From NCBI GenBank assembly GCA_964411925.1, contig CAYPNI010000003.1:2175-66174 (forward strand): a stretch of DNA of 64,000 nt, given 5' to 3'. Under the pieces are notes generated by a model, which did not search any database, had not been told where the DNA came from, and saw only the letters and a program-made list of their open reading frames with translations. The position numbers were made by a program, and so were the translations under genes. The stretch comes from an uncultured Nitrospirales bacterium. Lineage in GTDB: Bacteria; Hydrogenedentota; Hydrogenedentia; Hydrogenedentales; GCA-2746185. Below, piece by piece: positions 9,312 through 34,264 of the stretch (position 1 is the first letter of the stretch; every line of letters starts with the position of its first letter).

Positions 9312-12077
9312 TTAGTCCGCGCGAAAGCGATTTTTGTTGATTCGCAAAGAACGAATCTTCGAGTCGAGCGTGGAGGGCGGCATGCCGAGCTTTGCCGCGG
9401 CGCCACGCGGGCCCGCGACGCGGCCCTTCGAATCGGCCAGCGCCTTTTCGATCAGTTGCTTCTGATGATCGGCAACCTTCGTGGAAAGCTTGCGGCTGGC
9501 CGCTCCAGGCAGCGGTGGCTGTTGTGACAGCCAGCTCGCGTCCACGGTGAACTCCTCCGTGTCGCAAACAATCACGGACCTCTCGATCACGTTCTGCAAT
9601 TCGCGAATATTGCCCGGCCAGGGGTACGAGGTGAGCAGCTCCAGCGTCTTCAGGCTGATGCCGCGAAACCGCTTGCCCGCCCGTGCGGCGTACCGGCCTA
9701 CGAAGTACTCCACAAGCAAGGGAATGTCATCCGCGCGATCGGACAACGCGGGAAGATCGATCGGAAAGACGTTCAGCCGGTAGAACAAATCGCTGCGAAA
9801 CTTCCCGCCCACAATCAGGGCCTGCAGATCCCGGTTCGTCGCGGCAATGATGCGCACGTCGATGCGAATTGGGTCGTTTCCGCCGACGCGCTCGAACTCT
9901 CGCTCCTGGAGCACGCGCAACAGCAGAACCTGGGTTTCGATCGGCAACTCGCCCACTTCGTCAAGGAAAAGCGTTCCGCCTTCCGCAAGTTCGAACCGAC
10001 CCAGCCGCCGCTGTACGGCACCCGTGAACGCGCCTTTTTCATGACCGAACAACTCGGAAACGACGAGTGAAGGCGGAAAAGCAGCGCAGTTCACCGTCAC
10101 GAAGGCGCGCCCCGCGCGGTTCGAACGCTTGTGAATCGCGCGGGCGACCAGTTCTTTTCCCGTGCCGGTCTCGCCCGTAATCAGCACGGTCGAATCGGTC
10201 CGCGCGACCTGATCGACCCGCGCCAGTACAGCGCGAAGCGAAGGCGATATGCCCACGATTTCCTCAAACATGTGCTTGGCGTCGAGTTCCTCGCGAAGCG
10301 CCACGTTTTCACTGCGGATGCGTTCTTCTTCCTGCTTTCGCTCGTCGATGTCCACCCCCGAGACATACCACCGAAGCACGCCGCCCTGCTCGTCAAGCAT
10401 CGGCTTGAAGTGGTTCAAATACCACCGGTATCGGCCATCCGCCATCTGCATCCGGTACTCGGACTCGAACGAGAAGGGTTGAGTAATCGCGCGGTTCACG
10501 TGGTCCCGCACGGCGGCGCGATCTTCCGGGTGCATCCGATCGATCAGCGCGCCCGACATCACCTCCTCGTTCGTCAGACCGAACAGCCGCAGCACGGACT
10601 CGTTGGCATATTGCACGTCGCCGGAGATCGAGATGACACTGATCGGATAGGGAATTGCATCGACGATTTCGCGCGATTCGCGCTCGTTCCGCCTGATCCG
10701 CTCCTCTGCATGGACCCGCTCCGTCACGTCCATGACCACGCCGTAGTACTCGCTGAGCTCGCCGGTCTCGGTGGTTCGCGCGCGCAGGAACACACGGATG
10801 TGTTTGATGGCGCCGCTCGGGAATAGAAGCCGGTACTCAATCGAAAAATCGAGTCCGTCACGGGAGCCCCTGGAAAGGAGGTCATCCCACATCGTCCGAT
10901 CTTCAGGATGGATACGCCCGCGGACGAGTTCGAGCGTCGGCGTTGCCGTTTCTTCCACTTCGTATATCCGATACATTTCAGCGGACCACCACAGATTGTC
11001 GCTGTCCGGCCGCCAGGAGAAGCTGCCCGTAAGGCTCAGCCGCTGCCCCTCGGCCAGGTGTGCCTCGCTCCGGGATAGCGCCTCGCGCGCACGCGTACGC
11101 TCGATCGATATGGTCGCCAGGTGGGTGATCTGATCGATGAGTGCGTGATCGTCCGCCGACGGCGAACGGGGCTCGCGCGAATGAATGGCGAACGTCCCCA
11201 GCACCGTACCGTCAGCCGAAATAATCGGAGACGACCAGCACGCGCGCAGACCACTGGCCAGCGCGACCGCGCGAAACCCCGCCCAGTGAGGATCGTTCGC
11301 TATGTCCGCGGAGATGACTTGTTCGCGACGGTGGACCGCAGCGCCACAGGAGCCCAGCGTCGGATCCGCCGGGGCGCCGTCCACCGCCAACTTGTACGTA
11401 TCCGGTAGCGACGGAGCAGCGCCAATCGACAACCGATTCGAGATCGGATCCAGAATCAGAATCGACGCTATCGAACACGTCGAGAATTCCTCCACGACGC
11501 GGCACAGAGCGTCGAGCACGGAGGTGAGCGGATAGCCCTTGCCGATCATGCCGAGGATCTGGTTTTCCGCGTCGAGCAACGCTTCGGACCGCCGCCGGTC
11601 TTGAATGTCGATGCCCGTGCCATACCACTTCGCAGGGGCACCGTTGCTGGAGAGGTCCGGTTTCGCCTGGAACAAAAACCAGCGGTACTCGCCATCCGCG
11701 CGCTTCACCCGCGCTTCGAGCTGGCCGGGCCGCGGCGAAGCCTCCAGCGTGCGCCACGTGTCCACTAGCGATCGCACGTCGTCGGCATGAATCAGGTTGG
11801 ACGAAATCCAGCCCCAGTCCCGGATTTCCCCCGTCGGCAGACCCGTGTAGTCAGCCCAGGCTTGATTCAGAAACTCGATCGACCCGTCCGGCGTCGAACT
11901 CCAAACCAGACCGGGAGCGATATCCACCACGAACCGCGACAGGACATCATTCGCGGAAGTCGTCGGGAGCGAAGAAATCGGCACGGGAGTCTCGTCCATG
12001 CGCCCTCCGACGCGGAATAGACTAGCCGTGCATTCTAGTTCAGAATCGGCCATACCCTCAACAGACCGCCGGTTCAT
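9312..12077 (-). CDS. Sigma-54-dependent transcriptional activator (bEBP) with PAS-GAF-PAS-PAS sensor region, AAA+ domain and C-terminal HTH; no receiver domain
   Basis: 921 aa. GETGTGKE Walker A, GAFTGA loop (EKGAFTGA), RADDIPLLVEYF, WPGNIRELQNVIER, and a C-terminal Fis-type HTH (AAKLGMPPSTLDSKIRSL). Confidence 0.92.
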   Translation of the reverse strand: MNRRSVEGMADSELECTASLFRVGGRMDETPVPISSLPTTSANDVLSRFVVDIAPGLVWSSTPDGSIEFLNQAWADYTGLPTGEIRDWGWISSNLIHADDVRSLVDTWRTLEASPRPGQLEARVKRADGEYRWFLFQAKPDLSSNGAPAKWYGTGIDIQDRRRSEALLDAENQILGMIGKGYPLTSVLDALCRVVEEFSTCSIASILILDPISNRLSIGAAPSLPDTYKLAVDGAPADPTLGSCGAAVHRREQVISADIANDPHWAGFRAVALASGLRACWSSPIISADGTVLGTFAIHSREPRSPSADDHALIDQITHLATISIERTRAREALSRSEAHLAEGQRLSLTGSFSWRPDSDNLWWSAEMYRIYEVEETATPTLELVRGRIHPEDRTMWDDLLSRGSRDGLDFSIEYRLLFPSGAIKHIRVFLRARTTETGELSEYYGVVMDVTERVHAEERIRRNERESREIVDAIPYPISVISISGDVQYANESVLRLFGLTNEEVMSGALIDRMHPEDRAAVRDHVNRAITQPFSFESEYRMQMADGRYRWYLNHFKPMLDEQGGVLRWYVSGVDIDERKQEEERIRSENVALREELDAKHMFEEIVGISPSLRAVLARVDQVARTDSTVLITGETGTGKELVARAIHKRSNRAGRAFVTVNCAAFPPSLVVSELFGHEKGAFTGAVQRRLGRFELAEGGTLFLDEVGELPIETQVLLLRVLQEREFERVGGNDPIRIDVRIIAATNRDLQALIVGGKFRSDLFYRLNVFPIDLPALSDRADDIPLLVEYFVGRYAARAGKRFRGISLKTLELLTSYPWPGNIRELQNVIERSVIVCDTEEFTVDASWLSQQPPLPGAASRKLSTKVADHQKQLIEKALADSKGRVAGPRGAAAKLGMPPSTLDSKIRSLRINKNRFRAD

Positions 12078-25209: not shown

Positions 25210-26190
25210 ATGATGCGCACGTTTACGATTGGGCTGATCATGTTCGCCGCCGTTGCAGCGGCACAACACAATCCCGCACTCCATCCCCACGACGACATGA
25301 ACAACTGGGGCAAGTGGGGCGCGGAGGACGAATTCGGCGCGACGAACTACATCACTCCGGAGTCGATTGTCGAAGCGGCGAAGCTGATCAAGAAGGGCAA
25401 AGTCTTCAGCCTGGCGATCCCGATCGAGCGCGGCGGGCCGATTTTCCCGACGCGTCACCCGCCGCACCATTTCATGTCCGCGACGGGAGCGGACCCGACG
25501 CGGGTTTCGCAGGGCGCGATGGACGTCGCGTTCACGGACGACTATATCTATATGCCGCTGCAAGGCTCGACGCAGTGGGACGCATTGCCGCACGAGTTCT
25601 ACGGCGGTCAGTTTTACAACGGCCACCCGGCGAGCATCGTCACGGCATCCGGTGCGCAGAAGCTCGGCATCGACAAGGTGCGCGACCGGTTCGTGGGCCG
25701 CGCGGTGTTGATTGACATCGTCGCGTACAAAGGCGGTACGCTCGAGCCGGGCTACGGCATCACGCGCGCGGACATCGAGGGCGCGCTTGCCAGGCAGAAA
25801 TCGAAGGTCAAGACGGGGGACATCGTGCTTGTCCGCACGGGCGCCGTGCCGCATTACTACACGCTGCCGGCGGCGGAGCGGGACAACTGGGTCAACGTGC
25901 AGACGGGGATCACGAAGGACGTGGTCCCGTGGGTACGCGACATGAAAATCGCGGCGATTGCGGCGGACAATCTCGGCGTCGAGCACGCGCCCAACGCCGA
26001 CGGCAAGAACTGGAACCTGCACGGCAACCTGCTGCGCGACCTGGGCGTCTTCCTTGGCGAGATCTGGTGGCTCGAGGATCTCGCGGCCGACTGCGCCGCG
26101 GACGGCCGCTACGAATTCTTTCTGTCGGCGCAGCCCCTGTACATCCCCGGCGCGGTGGGATCGCCACTCAACCCGATGGCGATCAAGTGA
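25210..26190 (+). CDS. Secreted cyclase-family protein (kynurenine formamidase/isatin hydrolase fold)
   Basis: 326 aa, signal peptide. The motif region reads QGSTQWDALPH where the family consensus is HxGTHxDxPxH, so both leading His positions are Gln. GDIVLVRTG follows. Confidence 0.75.
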   Translation: MMRTFTIGLIMFAAVAAAQHNPALHPHDDMNNWGKWGAEDEFGATNYITPESIVEAAKLIKKGKVFSLAIPIERGGPIFPTRHPPHHFMSATGADPTRVSQGAMDVAFTDDYIYMPLQGSTQWDALPHEFYGGQFYNGHPASIVTASGAQKLGIDKVRDRFVGRAVLIDIVAYKGGTLEPGYGITRADIEGALARQKSKVKTGDIVLVRTGAVPHYYTLPAAERDNWVNVQTGITKDVVPWVRDMKIAAIAADNLGVEHAPNADGKNWNLHGNLLRDLGVFLGEIWWLEDLAADCAADGRYEFFLSAQPLYIPGAVGSPLNPMAIK

Positions 26191-26966
26191 AACGCACCGC
26201 AGCTGTTGCGATTGCGATCCTCATCGCGCTTTCGGTCCCGGCGCGGGCAGACAATACGCTCGGACAGGCAGAAGAGGCGCTGAAGCGTTTCATTGCCTCA
26301 GAGCAACCCGCGCGCGCTCCTGCGTTGGTTTGGGGTCGTCAAGGGTTCGAAGTTCACGATGGGCCGCCCTTCTACCTGGAGGTTGCCAACGCCGGCTCCT
26401 ATCGCGTGCTGTCCGCGCCGGTTGTCACTCCGGACCAAGTGCACTTCATCATCGGGCGTAGCGGAAAGGACCCCGACTCCGGTGCGAGTGCGGACGAATT
26501 CAGGATGTACGTCGTCCTGACTCGGCGAGACGGTGAGTGGGCTGTGCAGTTTACGGTCCCGCTCTCAGACTCGGATCTGAACGCCGACTCGACTGAGGCA
26601 GCAAAGTCGACGATCGACAGCTTCTTCACGGCATGGAGCGCAGCGGATAATGACGCGGTTCATCGAAGTATCAACTTTCCTCACGTCTTTCTCGTTCGCG
26701 AGGGCCGCGCTTCCATCGCCAGGACGCCGGACGAACTGATCACCGACTTCGACGGACTGCGCGAGCGCGAGGGTTGGGCGAAGAGCGAGTATCACGGGTT
26801 CGAAGTCGTTCACGCGGACGACACCAAGGTCATTGCAAAACTTACCTTTACCCGCCATCACACTGACGGTGCTGTTTACAGCACGGTGCCGGTGGTCTGG
26901 GTCTTTACGAATCAGGACGGGCATTGGGGACTACAAGTGAGAATGATCCTGCCCTCGTTGAAATGA
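26187..26966 (+). CDS. Secreted NTF2/SnoaL-like (DUF4440-type) domain protein
   Basis: GTG 26187 overlaps the upstream TGA (GTGA). Signal peptide VKRTAAVAIAILIALSVPARA. C-terminal IDSFFTAWSAADNDAV...WVFTNQDGHWGLQ is typical of the NTF2-like fold. Confidence 0.65.
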   Translation: MKRTAAVAIAILIALSVPARADNTLGQAEEALKRFIASEQPARAPALVWGRQGFEVHDGPPFYLEVANAGSYRVLSAPVVTPDQVHFIIGRSGKDPDSGASADEFRMYVVLTRRDGEWAVQFTVPLSDSDLNADSTEAAKSTIDSFFTAWSAADNDAVHRSINFPHVFLVREGRASIARTPDELITDFDGLREREGWAKSEYHGFEVVHADDTKVIAKLTFTRHHTDGAVYSTVPVVWVFTNQDGHWGLQVRMILPSLK

Positions 26967-26970
26967 CAAC

Positions 26971-27032
26971 CGCGCCGAATCGTCGAAACGATTCGGCGCG
27001 ATGCCGCCGTCCGGTTGGCGGGCCCGGACGGC
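26971..27032. terminator. Two adjacent strong hairpins between convergent transcription units (bidirectional terminator candidate)
   Basis: CGCGCCGAATCGT-cgaa-ACGATTCGGCGCG (26971-27000) and GCCGTCCGG-N9-CCGGACGGC (27006-27032). There is no clear U-tract on the plus strand and a short T-run on the minus strand. Confidence 0.45.
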
Positions 27033-27052
27033 CTCCTCCCCCATGGAATGCC

Positions 27053-27241
27053 TTATAGGTGCGCGATGGGCGCGGTCGCGTGCGTGGACGCGACAAGCAC
27101 CCAGCATTTCGAATAGAGAACGGCGCCGAGGAAGGGCATGATGGGCGTCGAATACACGGCGCGCACTTGCATGCGGTAGAACTTCCTCAAGCACCACGCC
27201 AAAATCGGCGATTGCGTGCGAATGACTGTTTCCTGCTCCAC
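27053..27241 (-). CDS. Uncalled 62-codon ORF downstream of an orphan sigma-54 promoter
   Basis: GTG 27241 is preceded by GGGGGAG with a 7-nt spacer. Product: VEQETVIRTQSPILAWCLRKFYRMQVRAVYSTPIMPFLGAVLYSKCWVLVASTHATAPIAHL. About 80% of codons end in G/C by hand count, as estimated by eye for real genes here. I recognise no family. Confidence 0.35.
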   Translation of the reverse strand: MEQETVIRTQSPILAWCLRKFYRMQVRAVYSTPIMPFLGAVLYSKCWVLVASTHATAPIAHL

Positions 27242-27312
27242 GGTCTTTCTCCCCCGTGCCCGGACACTGCCGGGCCTTTCGCTCTCGTCGCTTCTTCCCC
27301 GCGGTCGCATGA

Positions 27313-27327
27313 GCAACGGTTGTGCCA
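27313..27327 (-). promoter_or_regulatory. Sigma-54 (-24/-12) promoter, orphan
   Basis: Minus strand reads TGGCAC-AACCG-TTGC, an exact consensus match, inside a 550-bp region with no called gene. A GCCCGG-N6-CCGGGC hairpin (27258-27275) lies in the predicted leader. Confidence 0.65.
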
Positions 27328-27520
27328 GATCGCGTTCGCGCCGGATTACCGGACTGTTTTGCGTCCACTGCGATTTATGCGCGTCCAAAAATGTCGCGCG
27401 CGGCGCCCAATCGCGCGAGCGTGTACGGAAATGTGCGCAGCCGGAGGCGCGCCTGATAGCATGAGCATGGCCGCGCGGATCGGGCGCGGCCGGGGCCTCA
27501 CTATCCGGGGGGATTCACCG

Positions 27521-28246
27521 ATGCGCGCGCTTTCGTGCATTCAGGCTTCAATTTCCGTCGCGGTACTGGTGTGCGCCGCGGGCTGTCAGACGACGCCCAA
27601 AGAACCGCCGGCACCGGCGGCGATTCCCGTGGCCGACCTGCGGCCGGTCAATCCGGTATCGACGCTTCACCTCGGCGCTGGGCGCTATCCGAACTTGTTT
27701 TCGCCTGAGTCCCGCGCACTTTGGGTCAACGAGGACGTGGCGCAGGCGAAGCTCGACCGTGAAGTCGCCGCCACCGGCGAGGTGAGCCCGATGCTCGCGG
27801 CGGACGGCGCGGCTATCGCGCAGAACTATTACGTCATCGAAATGCAGCTCGGGTCGCAATTCCCCGATGCCAGCATCGCGTATGACGTTGTGGGCCTGCG
27901 GACGATTGACGTCTATCTGCTGCTGCCGGACGGTACGCGCGTTTGGCCGGTGCAGCGCGTGATGGGCTCGCACGCCAGCGAATCGAACGCGGGGGCGCTC
28001 AAGGCGTACGGGCGCACCAACATCGTCGCGTTTCCGAAGATGGACGTGCTGACCGGCCTGCCCACGATTCCCGGGGACGCGTCGGGCGTGCAACTCGTCC
28101 TCGACGGGTTCAGCTCGGCGTTCAACTTTGAGTGGGCCTTCGTGCCCGCGGTGGACACGCCGCCGGCCGAACCGGCCGAGGGCGGCGGCCTGAAGTTCTC
28201 CGATCTTTTCGAAAGTCTTCGCGAGCTATCCCGCATGACGCAGTAA
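27521..28246 (+). CDS. Lipoprotein of unknown function
   Basis: Start at internal ATG 27521. MRALSCIQASISVAVLVCAAGC is a signal with a lipobox. I recognise no family. Confidence 0.6.
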   Translation: MRALSCIQASISVAVLVCAAGCQTTPKEPPAPAAIPVADLRPVNPVSTLHLGAGRYPNLFSPESRALWVNEDVAQAKLDREVAATGEVSPMLAADGAAIAQNYYVIEMQLGSQFPDASIAYDVVGLRTIDVYLLLPDGTRVWPVQRVMGSHASESNAGALKAYGRTNIVAFPKMDVLTGLPTIPGDASGVQLVLDGFSSAFNFEWAFVPAVDTPPAEPAEGGGLKFSDLFESLRELSRMTQ

Positions 28247-28265: not shown

Positions 28266-28955
28266 ATGCGCTCGTTCCTGAAGTTCACGTTGACCGGAAT
28301 CGGCCTGGTGCTCATCCTGCTCGGCGTAGCGGCGCTTCTGGTATTCACGCAGGCGCAGGATTTCCTCGGCACGCGCGTGGGGCGCATCGTGTCCGAGGCG
28401 CTGGGGTCGGATGCGCGGGTGGGCGGCGTCGGGCTGGACCCGCGGATTCGGGCCGTGCTCCTTAAGGACGTCGCGCTGAAGAACCCGGCCGGCTTCAAGG
28501 AGGGCGAAGCGCTGACATGCGGCAGCGTGCTGGTGGTGTTTTCCTTTCGTACGCTGCTGTCCGAGGAACCCGCGATTCAACTGATCGAATTGCGCGACAC
28601 GCACATCAATAGCCGGCACGAAGCGGGCCGGGGCACGAACCTCGCCGCGCTCGCCAAGCGCTACGGCGAAGCGCCGGCGCAGGACGGGTTGAAGTTCACC
28701 GTAGACAAGCTCGTGTGCGAGGACGCCAAACTGCACCTCAGCACGAACTTGTTGCCCGGCGCGAGCGTGCCGATTAACCTCGCGAAGATCGAGATGGTGG
28801 ACCTTGCCCACGGCAAGCCGATCACGACTGAACACACGACCTCGCTCTTTTTGCGGACGCTGTTGCGCGAAGTCATTACCGTGAAAGGGCTCGGCGCATC
28901 GATTTACGACTCGATCGGCGCTGAACTGAAAGACCTGGAAAAGGAACCCGCCTAG
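28266..28955 (+). CDS. N-terminally membrane-anchored hypothetical protein (possibly AsmA/DUF748-like)
   Basis: 229 aa. TM helix LTGIGLVLILLGVAALLVF. The rest is beta-rich. The family assignment is tentative. Confidence 0.5.
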   Translation: MRSFLKFTLTGIGLVLILLGVAALLVFTQAQDFLGTRVGRIVSEALGSDARVGGVGLDPRIRAVLLKDVALKNPAGFKEGEALTCGSVLVVFSFRTLLSEEPAIQLIELRDTHINSRHEAGRGTNLAALAKRYGEAPAQDGLKFTVDKLVCEDAKLHLSTNLLPGASVPINLAKIEMVDLAHGKPITTEHTTSLFLRTLLREVITVKGLGASIYDSIGAELKDLEKEPA

Positions 28956-30216: not shown

Positions 30217-33200
30217 CTAGAGGCCGATGCCGATATCGCGGAAATCGGTGAGGTTCACTTGGAAACCGACGTCCAGGCCGCGATCGCGGTCGCGAACAAA
30301 TAGTTCGAGTTCCCATTTGTGCAGACGACGCCGAATGCCATACGACTGCCGCGTGATTCGATTTTCGTTGATGTCGAACCGCTGTTCGAATCCGACTGAC
30401 CAGTTCTCGCTCAACTTGTAACCGGCTCCGTACAGCACTTCCTGGTTGAGAATGTCGCCGGCCGCCTGCGTATGCGCGAAACCGATACGGGCATTGAGAT
30501 TGTTCTTGTCGAGCTCGTTGTCGTAGAAAAAGTAGGCGAGTACGCGGTTGAAGTCGTCGCCGTCGGCATCGCCGACGCCTTGGACGTCATGGACTTCTCC
30601 GATTGAATGGATGCCCCACCAGGGGCGCGGCCGGATTTCGACTTCGAGCGCGTAGTCGGCCGATTCCGCCGTTTCATTGTAGAAGTCGTTTCCGGTGTAG
30701 ACCGTCATCCGAGCGACCGGCCAGATCGTGTTCGTTGCGGCGTTGCGGCCCAGGATGATGTTGTCAATCGTGTTTTCCAGGCGGAATCGCGAGGGCCGAT
30801 CATCGAGATCGTCGAACCGCGGAATCTCGGAGGCGTCGACGGTGGCGGCGGGCCGGTACAGCAGCGTAGTCGAGGGGATAATGATGTGTTTGAATCCGGA
30901 GAAATTCGCGACGCCGCGGAACCCACGCTGGAGACGGCCCTGCAAAGTAACGCCGACTGTCGCCGAACCGCGAAGGGCGTCATTGTCCTCGTCGAGATCG
31001 CGCGAGTAGTAAGTCCCGTCCACTTCGACGAACGGCAAGATGTTGAAGCCCGGGGCCACGTTCCAGTCGTAGCTCAAGCGGCCGATGGCCAGCGTTCGGG
31101 CGCTCTCGATTTCGTCGGGCTGGGTTCTGTAATAGCCCGCGACGGTGTCGAACGTGCCGTACAGCCCGCCCGCAGCGGAGCGTTCGAGCAGGTGAAACGT
31201 AAGTTCGGGGAGCTTTTCGGTCTCTCGCGTGAACGAGTGTGTGCTGGGAGCGAAGGTGGCGGTGGTGATGTACTCGGGCCGCGTGCGCGTGAGGTTTATG
31301 AAGGATCGGGGGCCCGTGCGATCGGAGTATTCGCTCGGGTAAAAGTCCTTGACGAAATCCGAATCGGACCATTGCTCCCACTGGACCAGGGCATCGGAAT
31401 TGAGCGTCAGTTCCTGACGGTGATACCACTGGAGGTATCCCCGATCTTCGGTGGTGTAGAGGGTCTGGAATTCGCCATCGCTGCGGTAGAACGTGGCGGC
31501 GGGCGAATCCATCAGGTTGTATTCGCCATCGACACCCACGCCAATACCTTGCTGCGTTGTGGCGTAGATTCGGGGTGCGAGGTTGGCGTGGTCTGTCGCT
31601 TTGAACCACTGCGCAACGTTTAGAAAGGTTCCCAGGTCGGCGCGGGTTCCCAGTTCGAGTTCGGTCGCCAGTACGCGGGAATCCGGCTGGAGCGACATCG
31701 CCGCCCACGGCAGATAAAACGGCGTATTCACCTTGCCGACCTGGAGGCGAACATTGCGTGCGGTCACCCGCTCACCATTGTCCACCTCCGCATTCGAAAG
31801 GCGCAGCCGGTAATGCGGCTCGGGCCGATCGCAGGTGGTCACCCAGAGATCGCGGGCGACTAAATTTCCCGCGCCCTCGATGTGCAGCGTTTCGGACCCG
31901 AAAAAGAGCGGCCCGGCCCGGCCTTCGGTATTCGTTAACGTGCCCGCGCGGGTTCGCAGGTCCAATTCGAGGTGGTCCGCGATAATCTCGCGTTTCCCTT
32001 CCTCTTCCCACACGACGTTTTGCGCGATGAGCGTTCCGGCGGTTTCCCCGGGTGCGAAATCATCTGAGGTTTTGCCGTGCGGCAACAGCGGGTGAGGAAC
32101 GCCACGGGAATTGCTCAAGGGCAGCAGCGGCGTGAGAAGGCCTCCGAGCGCGACTGGCGGGTCCACGATGCGCAGGGTATCCGCGGTGAGGAATGCGCCC
32201 GGTCGCTCGAGTCGGACTTCGCCGCGAAGCTCGACTTCGGAGTCCACCGTTGAAATCGACATCGCGTTGGCGCGAACCAGAGTATCGCCCATTCTGAACG
32301 AGGTCGGTTGATCGGCCTCGATCCGTCCGTCGACCAACCGTAATGATCCGAGATCGGACACCACGTCCTCCGGGCTCTGGCTCCAGTCAACGGACAGGAG
32401 ACTGGAGCTGTCCTTTCCAATCTTCAAGGCCTCCGTGAGTTCCCGTTCGAACGATCCCTCCGGATCGCCGAAATATGGCGGATACGGCGATTTCCCGCGA
32501 ATGTTGCTCCGGCTGGGGCGTTTGGAGAACCTCGGGTCAGGCGTGACCGCATCGGCGGCCGGCGCGGTGTCGATCGCCGACGACGAATCTCTAGTTTCGG
32601 GCGCGACCGCGTCTTCGATCGGCACAGACGCGATTCCGTTCGACGGCGGCGAATCCTCGGCCGCGGTAACGTCAGGCACAACGGCGCCATCGGCCGGCGC
32701 AAGCGCTGTGTCGTTCGATTGCGGCGAATCCTCCGTCGCGGCAGCGTCGGGCGCGACAGCGCCATCGACCGGCGCGGGCACTGTCTCGTTCGATGGCGGT
32801 GAGTCCTCGGTCGCGGGAACGTCAGGCGCGGCGGTGCCGATCGGGGGTTCCAATTGTTCAGGTTGCAGCGGCTCGTCCTGCGCGCGTTGAGCTTGCGCGA
32901 CGACCGCCGGTGGCGGCGGCGTGACCGGCTGCGTCAGGTCGGGACGAACGTTCGTCCCCGGGTCCCCGGTGGCGTCCGGTTGGTCCTGCGCCGCGAGAGC
33001 AAGGCTTCCTGACGGCCCAAGCTGCCATAGAAGATTGCTTCCCGGCGCCCATGCGACGAATCCTCCGTGAAGGTCCAGCGCACGCGACGCCCGCTCGGGG
33101 ATGGGCCACGTGGAGGTTGGCGTGAGTCTCGAGCCGTCCCACGCCAATTCTGTGGCCATAGAGCCCGAGACGCCGATCAGACCTGAGCTGACGCGATCAA

Positions 33201-33918
33201 TCGAAACCGATTCCATCGTTAGTTCGTTCACGATGCGCGCTGAGCCTGTATCGAGCATGAGAATTCGATCGGTTGACGCCAGCGCGACCACGGCGGGCGA
33301 CACCACCTTCAACTGGACCACGCCGGACGCGATTGGAATCGTGCGCGCGCTTTCAAGCGACGCGGGATCGAGAAGCCGGACCTGTTCTGGCGCGTGCACG
33401 AGCACGGCGATTCGATCTCCGGCCCTTGCGGCAGTGACCGGTACGCCGTCTGAGATCATCGCGCGCTTGGATACCACCGCGGACTGTGCGTCAACGAGTG
33501 ATATCGATTGGTCGAAGGGATTCACGATACCGAAGCGGGCGTCGCCGGCGTCGAAGACGACAGTGGCCCCGGAATCGAGTTCAACGGCGCCGTGGACCGA
33601 CCTTGTGCTGGCGTCGATGAGCGTGAGCGAACTGTCGTGGCGGTTGAGGACGGCTACCCACGCACCCGACGCCGCGAGCGCAGCCGGACCATCGCCCGTG
33701 GCAATGCGCGTGACGATCTCGCGCGACCGCGGATCGAGACACAGCACTTCGTCTGTGTCGTACGAAGCCAGATAGACGAGCGCGGAATCCGGTTCGAAGA
33801 GTACGTCGCGAACCGGGTTCGGCGCGGTTAGAATGAGCTGTGGCTCTTGCGCAGTACTCGACGCCGTGCAAACACACAACGCGAGCGCGGCTAGCGCATG
33901 CCCCCGACGGGCCCCCAT
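30217..33918 (-). CDS. lptD: LptD/OstA-family outer-membrane LPS-assembly protein with long N-terminal beta-propeller-like and Pro/Ala/Asp-rich repeat extension
   Basis: Start at ATG 33918 (MGARRGHALAALALCVCTASSTAQE, signal peptide). OstA-like segment (LRGEVRLERPGAFLTADTLRI). VTTCDRPEPHYRLRLSNAEVD...VNTPFYLPWAAMSL and a C-terminal barrel. The N-terminal ~350 aa resemble YVTN-type propeller repeats. Confidence 0.8.
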   Translation of the reverse strand: MGARRGHALAALALCVCTASSTAQEPQLILTAPNPVRDVLFEPDSALVYLASYDTDEVLCLDPRSREIVTRIATGDGPAALAASGAWVAVLNRHDSSLTLIDASTRSVHGAVELDSGATVVFDAGDARFGIVNPFDQSISLVDAQSAVVSKRAMISDGVPVTAARAGDRIAVLVHAPEQVRLLDPASLESARTIPIASGVVQLKVVSPAVVALASTDRILMLDTGSARIVNELTMESVSIDRVSSGLIGVSGSMATELAWDGSRLTPTSTWPIPERASRALDLHGGFVAWAPGSNLLWQLGPSGSLALAAQDQPDATGDPGTNVRPDLTQPVTPPPPAVVAQAQRAQDEPLQPEQLEPPIGTAAPDVPATEDSPPSNETVPAPVDGAVAPDAAATEDSPQSNDTALAPADGAVVPDVTAAEDSPPSNGIASVPIEDAVAPETRDSSSAIDTAPAADAVTPDPRFSKRPSRSNIRGKSPYPPYFGDPEGSFERELTEALKIGKDSSSLLSVDWSQSPEDVVSDLGSLRLVDGRIEADQPTSFRMGDTLVRANAMSISTVDSEVELRGEVRLERPGAFLTADTLRIVDPPVALGGLLTPLLPLSNSRGVPHPLLPHGKTSDDFAPGETAGTLIAQNVVWEEEGKREIIADHLELDLRTRAGTLTNTEGRAGPLFFGSETLHIEGAGNLVARDLWVTTCDRPEPHYRLRLSNAEVDNGERVTARNVRLQVGKVNTPFYLPWAAMSLQPDSRVLATELELGTRADLGTFLNVAQWFKATDHANLAPRIYATTQQGIGVGVDGEYNLMDSPAATFYRSDGEFQTLYTTEDRGYLQWYHRQELTLNSDALVQWEQWSDSDFVKDFYPSEYSDRTGPRSFINLTRTRPEYITTATFAPSTHSFTRETEKLPELTFHLLERSAAGGLYGTFDTVAGYYRTQPDEIESARTLAIGRLSYDWNVAPGFNILPFVEVDGTYYSRDLDEDNDALRGSATVGVTLQGRLQRGFRGVANFSGFKHIIIPSTTLLYRPAATVDASEIPRFDDLDDRPSRFRLENTIDNIILGRNAATNTIWPVARMTVYTGNDFYNETAESADYALEVEIRPRPWWGIHSIGEVHDVQGVGDADGDDFNRVLAYFFYDNELDKNNLNARIGFAHTQAAGDILNQEVLYGAGYKLSENWSVGFEQRFDINENRITRQSYGIRRRLHKWELELFVRDRDRGLDVGFQVNLTDFRDIGIGL
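32604..32829 (-). repeat. Three in-frame 75-bp tandem repeats inside the lptD-like gene
   Basis: Unit ends gtcaggcac (32679), gtcgggcgc (32754) and gtcaggcgc (32829), period 75. They encode APDVPATEDSPPSNETVPAPVDGAV / APDAAATEDSPQSNDTALAPADGAV / VPDVTAAEDSPPSNGIASVPIEDAV. Confidence 0.85.
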
Positions 33919-34264
33919 GACCGAATGTCGCTCCCCCGCTGCAGGCCGGTAAATCGCCCCCAAAGGCCCGCATAATCCGTTGTCGCCGCGACAATTAGCC
34001 CAGAAATTGTCCGCGACGCCGCGAGTATAGCACCACGCCAATTGGCCAACAATTTTCGCAGGTCTGTTCCGTTTGGCACACCACCACGCGGTAAGTTCGT
34101 GCGTCTCGGGGATTTACGACCGGTTTTCGCGGCGGTTTCGTAGTCAGAATCCGCAAGTTGCGGGTATAGTTCATAGGGTCTGTCCAGACACCGGCAGCCC
34201 CATGTAATGCCTATTTAACAGCATCGGCCGCAGGGATTTAGGGATCCGGCTGGGGGAACGTACG

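Follow-up and report, generated by a model that had tools for sequence, protein, structure and literature searches.

The 64,000-nucleotide (nt) stretch of contig CAYPNI010000003.1 that was analysed here (assembly GCA_964411925.1), referred to below as the window, contains a gap at positions 26967–27520 which is bounded by two plus-strand genes, and our subject is the short minus-strand unit lying in that gap, antisense in orientation to both neighbours. The first of these genes (26187..26966) encodes an unclassified product with a signal-peptide-like N-terminus and the second (27521..28246) a lipoprotein-like product, neither of which was matched in Pfam or NCBIfam. The unit itself comprises a promoter of the sigma-54 (−24/−12) type, two candidate activator sites upstream of it, a leader with a hairpin and a Shine–Dalgarno (SD) sequence, an open reading frame (ORF) of 62 codons and a 3′ untranslated region (UTR) that ends in an intrinsic terminator (Table 1). 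Judged from these elements and their conservation, it is very probably a monocistronic sigma-54-dependent gene for a protein of 62 amino acids (aa). A preliminary description of the sequence had proposed a stand-alone sigma-54 promoter driving a unit of about 0.33 kb with this ORF, and the comparison with relatives gives that proposal strong support. A gap that had been flagged as empty is in this way occupied by a well-defined gene with a complete and conserved regulatory anatomy, in a poorly known and largely uncultured lineage.

The composition of the 62-codon frame shows a coding-like periodicity, with G+C fractions of 0.53, 0.47 and 0.81 at the first, second and third codon positions in sequence of 64% G+C, the last figure agreeing with the earlier estimate of about 80%. 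The same ORF had been called by gene finders in a protein collection (P0001), and when the extended frame was searched against 5.8 billion predicted proteins 11 others were returned, all of 62–64 aa and 72–89% identical, and all aligning only downstream of the GTG. From the contigs of these homologues and from two collection scans with the family alignment, one of genomes and one of metagenomes, which contributed two loci each, 15 further loci carrying the ORF were assembled, giving 12 distinct coding sequences with that of the window included. The length of the ORF stays at 61–64 codons throughout this close subfamily. Among the 12 coding sequences, 32, 17 and 55 of the 61 columns (start codon excluded) vary at the first, second and third codon positions respectively, and the comparison of synonymous and non-synonymous change that had been proposed at the outset gives a median pairwise ratio (dN/dS) of 0.20 and a maximum of 0.41, with synonymous distances (dS) of 0.4–1.3 from the window sequence. 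The ORF is under purifying selection and is a genuine protein-coding gene.

The promoter is an exact match to the consensus TGGCAC-N5-TTGC and, as had been noticed before, is intergenic and the second such match in the window. Two exact matches compare with 0.18 expected in 64 kb, a number reached in 1 of 100 shuffled sequences; with one mismatch permitted, the four matches found are at the level of chance. In all 15 close loci the TGGCAC and TTGC(T) blocks are unchanged, lie exactly 5 nt from one another and stand 70–83 nt upstream of the start codon, and the spacer between them varies (AACCG, AGCAG, AGGCG, GGCCG, ACCTG, ATGCG and others). At the level of sequence, two invariant blocks with a variable spacer of fixed 5-nt length are the signature of sigma-54. 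A promoter scan found no sigma-70-like promoter on the minus strand of the gap, and a gene for a bacterial enhancer-binding protein (bEBP) with GAFTGA and ELFGH motifs, at about 10.0 kb of the window, suggests that a sigma-54 system is in use.

Upstream of the promoter lie two dyad-like boxes of the form ACAWTTYTGNAC, the distal site A and the proximal site B, which begin at −107 and −67 relative to the T of TGGCAC and are spaced by 40–41 nt. Both are present in every close locus whose contig extends that far, with the exception of the divergent locus L016. Thirteen close loci have kept site A, whose position relative to the start of TGGCAC is −106 to −108 (or −119), and in locus L001 it is a full palindrome, GCACAA-TT-TTGTGC; site B reads (TTG)ACAATTTTGGACGC in the relatives, always 40–41 nt downstream of site A, and the window has no other match to the motif with zero mismatches. 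Of the columns of site A 44% are invariant, compared with 0% of those in the spacer that separates site B from the promoter. In L004 and L005 an insertion of 11 nt between site B and the promoter shifts both boxes, and as this is one helical turn the helical phase of the boxes is preserved. Such a layout is the classic geometry of enhancer-binding-protein sites and suggests that a bEBP may bind here. The motif, in two copies 40 nt apart, is a candidate enhancer motif for defining a sigma-54 regulon and could help to match that regulon to one of the orphan enhancer-binding proteins of the lineage. The repeats that the preliminary description had pointed out in this region, GCGTCCA and TCGCGCG, overlap with the conserved boxes without being those boxes, and its suggestion that the activator differs from that of the promoter before an Ohr/OsmC-like ORF elsewhere in the window is reasonable, given that the boxes are unlike the palindrome upstream of that promoter and that no activator gene is linked to the small gene in any locus examined. 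On the plus strand, a conserved box TGATAGCAT (TGnTAnCAT in relatives) about 58 nt upstream of the lipoprotein ATG (27521) is probably the extended −10 element of the divergent lipoprotein/DUF748 operon; since site A abuts the putative −35 region of that promoter, the small gene and the lipoprotein operon may be co-regulated.

Fourteen sequences retain the hairpin of the predicted leader, two of whose six pairs show compensatory changes, and an SD-like purine run stands 6–8 nt upstream of the start codon in all loci. The full predicted transcript of about 340 nt is not unusually structured (fold energy z = −1.1), which is consistent with what is expected of an mRNA.

Table 1. Features of the small minus-strand unit, followed by other features of the window that are mentioned in the text
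Feature	Position	Strand	Sequence or detail	Basis
62-codon gene	27053..27241	minus	GTG start at 27241, TAA at 27055-27053; product MEQETVIRTQSPILAWCLRKFYRMQVRAVYSTPIMPFLGAVLYSKCWVLVASTHATAPIAHL	homologues, codon-level selection
Predicted 5′ leader	27242..27301	minus	about 60 nt; start predicted near 27301-27299, at conserved GGGGAA	standard −12 spacing
Leader hairpin	27275-27270/27263-27258	minus	GCCCGG, 6-nt loop, CCGGGC	inverted repeat
SD sequence	27255-27249	minus	GGGGGAG, 7-nt spacer, then GTG 27241	
Sigma-54 (−24/−12) promoter	27313..27327	minus	TGGCACAACCGTTGC = TGGCAC-AACCG-TTGC	exact consensus
Site A, distal activator-site candidate	27423..27434	minus	ACATTTCCGTAC; centred about −128 from predicted transcription start	
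Site B, proximal activator-site candidate	27383..27394	minus	ACATTTTTGGAC; centred about −88 from predicted transcription start	
SD-like G-box in 3′ UTR	27033..27046	minus	CCATGGGGGAGGAG (also given as CCAnGGGGGAGGAG)	47% invariant columns
Hairpin 1	27006..27032	minus	GCCGTCCGG ... CCGGACGGC; perfect inverted-repeat arms 27032-27024/27014-27006	8 pairs
Intrinsic terminator	26958..27002	minus	16-bp hairpin 2 (27002-26969) and U-rich tail; perfect inverted-repeat arms 27000-26988/26983-26971	terminator scan, covariation
Box before lipoprotein gene	27454-27462	plus	TGATAGCAT; probable extended −10	
Gene for DUF748-like protein	28266-28955	plus	229 aa	
Gene for LptD homologue	30217-34041	minus	ORF of 1274 aa	
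Second exact sigma-54 promoter	9143-9129	minus		
bEBP gene	about 9313-10900	minus	GAFTGA motif	
Ohr/OsmC-like ORF	starts about 9066	minus		

The 3′ UTR, made up of an SD-like G-box, hairpin 1 and the terminator with its hairpin 2, has 44–47% invariant columns, as against 15% for the third positions of the ORF and 0% past the terminator. In the alignment of the two hairpins 96.9% of cells are paired, compared with 24–46% in controls in which the partners were slid; compensatory changes affect two of the eight pairs of hairpin 1 and 6 of the 16 of hairpin 2, none of 500 shuffles reaches the observed covariation, and the stem of hairpin 1 is nearly invariant in sequence. The terminator scan gave a match on the minus strand only, a T-run follows hairpin 2 in all relatives, and the frequent G·U pairs of these hairpins would be A·C mismatches on the opposite strand. 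The G·U pairs and the minus-only U-tail thus mark the terminator as that of the small gene rather than of its convergent neighbour, and the idea that the hairpins terminate the convergent plus-strand gene was rejected on these grounds and on the differences in that other flank among loci. All the sequence features listed in the preliminary description stand at the coordinates it gave, among them the leader hairpin, the SD with its GTG and the two strong 3′ hairpins (27032–26971), the second of which is the intrinsic terminator; as far as their contigs extend, the close loci share promoter, ORF and hairpins.

The G-box resembles the SD region of the small gene itself (repeat D11) and persists in L007 and L009, where insertions of 45 nt (L007:1281-1325) and about 118 nt (L009:335-452) come between the stop codon and the box; in L009 an extra GC-rich hairpin is also inserted between the G-box and hairpin 1. 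A covariance model of the 3′ UTR found exactly one copy per close locus, no other copy in the 137 kb scanned and none in the distant member L017 described below. Two further explanations of the box were tried and set aside: a second ORF behind it, for which no start codon (ATG, GTG or TTG) lies near enough (the ATG in the CCATGG of the window is not conserved), and a repeated genomic element or one with a local antisense partner, the box occurring once per locus and no complement to it having been found in the window. Rfam gave no family at the gathering score in the whole window and only chance-level matches (E above 3) in 26800–27700. A strongly conserved SD-like box in a 3′ UTR is a concrete and testable oddity. 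Immediately after the terminator of the small gene in L001 (L001:3420-3500) there are tandem 9-nt repeats, GGACGAAG(C/T)G.

The distant member L017 encodes a protein of 64 aa with 42% identity and is flanked by sulfatase genes. It has TGGCACGGTACTGGC, one mismatch away from TGGCAC-N5-TTGC, 63 nt before its ATG, two upstream boxes, ACAAATATGTAC and ACATTTTCGGAC, 39 nt apart, and a terminator-like hairpin downstream of the ORF. Because promoter, boxes and hairpin are shared, sigma-54 control appears, from this one distant member, to be a property of the family and not of a single locus. Wherever a locus of the 62-aa subfamily is long enough, the small gene is seen to diverge from the lipoprotein gene, which in the longer loci is followed by a DUF748 (AsmA-like) gene, an M20 peptidase gene in convergent orientation and LptD. 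On its other side the small gene has variable neighbours. This synteny hints at an envelope- or stress-related role. The unit is autonomous, since L016 has no lipoprotein neighbour and keeps promoter, leader and ORF as well as the first part of the G-box, at which its contig ends. The DUF748-like and LptD genes form a conserved envelope cluster beside the small gene; in the window, the 229-aa product of the former matches only the N-terminal part of DUF748, below the Pfam cut-off, and the LptD homologue is unusually long in its ORF, the relatives being called at 1113–1136 aa.

The protein belongs to what is, on present sequence comparisons, an uncharacterised, lineage-restricted family of small basic proteins, mostly of 50–90 aa and comprising about 80 clusters at 90% identity. 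When 1.84 billion representatives (50% identity, E ≤ 0.001) were searched with a profile, 26 proteins were returned, one of which, a repetitive protein of 756 aa, was spurious, and the same kind of search of 90%-identity clusters returned 78 proteins of 55–111 aa. Homologues of as little as about 30% identity can be detected, and 36 aligned members share the core IRTxSPIxAWYLTxFRGxxVRAVxxTPxxxxxGxxxYSxxWVLV. Two members with NCBI names come from metagenome-assembled genomes (MAGs) of Candidatus Hydrogenedentota, and one contig is labelled Hydrogenedentiales_JAEUWI01. The family is absent from every curated library searched: scans of the 36 members with Pfam, NCBIfam, PHROGs and PADLOC gave nothing better than E = 0.026, and a profile search of the PDB gave no match (E 0.69 or worse). 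The taxon labels of the MAGs in which the family occurs (L005, L006, L017, P0064 and P0096) disagree (Rhodothermaeota bacterium Bin_8_9, uncultured Nitrospirales, Candidatus Hydrogenedentota, Hydrogenedentiales_JAEUWI01), and some of the submitter labels are probably wrong.

AlphaFold2 gives the same topology with alignments of 36 and 89 sequences, namely a strand at residues 6–9, a helix at 12–21 and a long hairpin of strands 24–37 and 40–51 with the nearly invariant Gly39 at its turn. Weak top matches of the model to uL23, S6, Alba and dodecin in Foldseek were set aside as generic beta-alpha-beta-beta topology. Every one of the 36 members scanned has a positive net charge, which amounts to +4 to +6 in the 62-aa subfamily. 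The hydrophobic C-terminal half that had led the preliminary description to propose a small membrane protein is real; it is borderline for a membrane span, the maximum 19-residue Kyte–Doolittle mean being 1.56 in the window protein and 1.35 in the family median, with 5 of 36 members reaching 1.6, and AlphaFold models it as a beta-hairpin. The segment also has a conserved Lys/Arg and a polar Tyr-Ser mid-way. With low confidence, we favour a small basic protein that is soluble or peripheral.

Taken together, these features suggest the following course of expression for the sigma-54-dependent gene. An unlinked bEBP would bind the two ACAWTTYTGNAC boxes centred near −128 and −88 and, through DNA looping and ATP hydrolysis, would open the closed complex of the sigma-54 holoenzyme at TGGCAC-N5-TTGC. 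Opening of the sigma-54 closed complex by a bEBP is established biology, and the regulatory architecture seen here is textbook sigma-54, so that current understanding is not overturned. Transcription would then run from near 27301 to the terminator hairpin and U-tail, giving an mRNA of about 340 nt whose ends are predicted from sequence and conservation. The SD and the GTG would direct translation of the small basic protein, for which selection is seen at the protein level, and the product would, though with low confidence, most likely fold as a soluble or peripheral beta-alpha-beta-beta unit that acts by binding a partner.

Several points weigh against this account. Dependence on sigma-54, the transcription start and the use of the terminator are all inferred from the sequence and its conservation; within the 64-kb window, which was the range covered, no rpoN gene was found; and the lack of a linked activator gene has been mentioned above. 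The argument from helical phasing has two independent indel events as its sole basis, and the boxes could serve the divergent lipoprotein promoter instead or in addition, because site A abuts its putative −35 element at a fixed distance. The break in synteny in L016 and L017 weakens the link to the envelope. As for the product, the AlphaFold model is of moderate confidence only (mean predicted local distance difference test score about 70, core blocks 73–82, predicted template modelling score 0.41), its best Foldseek match in the PDB (E = 0.9) is no significant neighbour, and the hydrophobicity of the 62-aa subfamily, 1.3–1.7, lies near enough to the 1.6 threshold for a tail-anchored topology to be possible.

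The preliminary description had left three options for the unit, a small membrane protein, a dual-function RNA or a small RNA (sRNA). The last of these, a non-coding sigma-54-dependent sRNA in which the 62-codon frame is fortuitous, draws on a likeness to genes of the Qrr, GlmY and Pxr type in size (about 340 nt), in having a sigma-54 promoter of its own and in the strength of the terminator; it is scarcely credible and effectively refuted by the selection seen at the codon level, the third-position excess and the dN/dS of 0.20 excluding a pure non-coding RNA, to which the conserved length and start position of the ORF, the protein homologues to about 30% identity and the ordinary fold energy may be added. 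That the TGGCAC-N5-TTGC blocks serve some other purpose and that another sigma factor transcribes the gene is very unlikely: a perfect TTGACA does occur inside site B in relatives, but no −10-like element follows it at 16–18 nt in any locus, so that a sigma-70 promoter using it was rejected, and the invariant blocks with their variable, fixed-length spacer recur in L017, a paralogue or orthologue of 42% identity with other surroundings. The membrane protein of the first option, taken as a small tail-anchored protein spanning at residues ~33–52 and comparable to sigma-54-dependent envelope-stress proteins such as PspG, is a possible if rather unlikely reading. It has in its favour the hydrophobic stretch IMPFLGAVLYSKCWVLVAS, which rises to 1.6–1.7 in some orthologues, the positively charged N-terminal half and the adjoining cluster of LptD, AsmA-like and lipoprotein genes; the low family median, the charged and polar residues inside the stretch, its appearance in two AlphaFold runs as half of a long beta-hairpin and the loss of synteny in L016 and L017 leave this option without support as it had been proposed.

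The remaining option lives on in the 3′ UTR, whose conserved ~90 nt (G-box, hairpin 1 and terminator) might make the transcript a dual-function mRNA that also carries an RNA element, whether a processed 3′UTR-derived sRNA (compare GlnZ), a protein-binding site, possibly for autoregulation by the 62-aa product, or an SD-like stabiliser. We consider this unlikely. The degree of conservation relative to the ORF third positions and to the sequence past the terminator, the conservation of the hairpin 1 stem in sequence beyond what pairing alone would need, the retention of the element past insertions of 45–118 nt, once per locus, and the likeness of the G-box to the SD region of the gene all speak for it; against it, the conservation could stem from the needs of termination or stability among closely related genomes, there is no Rfam match and no complementary target in the window, a G-rich box is unlike the typical C/U-rich seeds of sRNAs, and the element is absent from L017. 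A more specific form of the idea, which is quite improbable, is a sigma-54-controlled dual-function locus in which the basic beta-alpha-beta-beta protein would be an RNA- or ribosome-binding factor and the purine-rich boxes of its own transcript (the 5′ GGGGAA, the SD GGGGGAG and the invariant 3′ box GGGGGAGGAG adjoining hairpin 1) would be its binding sites or be set free as a regulatory 3′UTR RNA. If true, the locus would provide a post-transcriptional regulator specific to its lineage, with named examples so far from Hydrogenedentota only, that is switched on by a bEBP.

Among known systems, pspG of Escherichia coli is a stand-alone small-protein gene dependent on sigma-54 and PspF, and the sigma-54-dependent gene proposed here is like it in being a monocistronic small gene with its own −24/−12 promoter, upstream activator sites (candidates in the present case) and an activator encoded elsewhere. 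The two have no similarity in sequence or predicted fold, PspG being an integral membrane protein and the present product basic and predicted to be beta-alpha-beta-beta, and they also differ in activator-site motif and lineage, the named members of the present family coming from Candidatus Hydrogenedentota. At the glnAp2 promoter, the tandem enhancer sites of the NtrC type are a pair of dyads separated by about three helical turns and located upstream of −100. The present two boxes likewise resemble each other, are dyad-like and fall on one face of the helix, 40–41 nt apart and near −88 and −128 from a −24/−12 promoter, with the motif ACAWTTYTGNAC in place of TGCACC-N5-GGTGCA. The sRNAs that depend on sigma-54 include Qrr1–5 (with LuxO), GlmY/GlmZ (with GlrR), Pxr of Myxococcus and CJnc230 of Campylobacter (PMC2680268 and PMC11187230 for part of these), and the likeness to them is one of layout only, a short intergenic unit that has an exact sigma-54 promoter, activator sites upstream of it (candidates here) and an intrinsic terminator; the transcript here has a strong SD and an ORF under purifying selection, as an mRNA does, and no Rfam match. 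GlnZ is a 3′UTR-derived sRNA released from the sigma-54/NtrC-dependent glnA mRNA (PMC9731577), with which the present unit shares a sigma-54-driven mRNA (predicted here) whose 3′ UTR and terminator are conserved beyond the needs of termination. It differs from GlnZ in that its box is G-rich and SD-like where a C/U-rich seed would be expected and in that no target was found in the window.

The other exact sigma-54 promoter of the window, at 9143-9129, lies just downstream of the GAFTGA-containing bEBP gene, has a palindrome-rich stretch, TTTTCGAAAATTTTCGAAA, upstream of it and is followed after about 60 nt by the Ohr/OsmC-like ORF.

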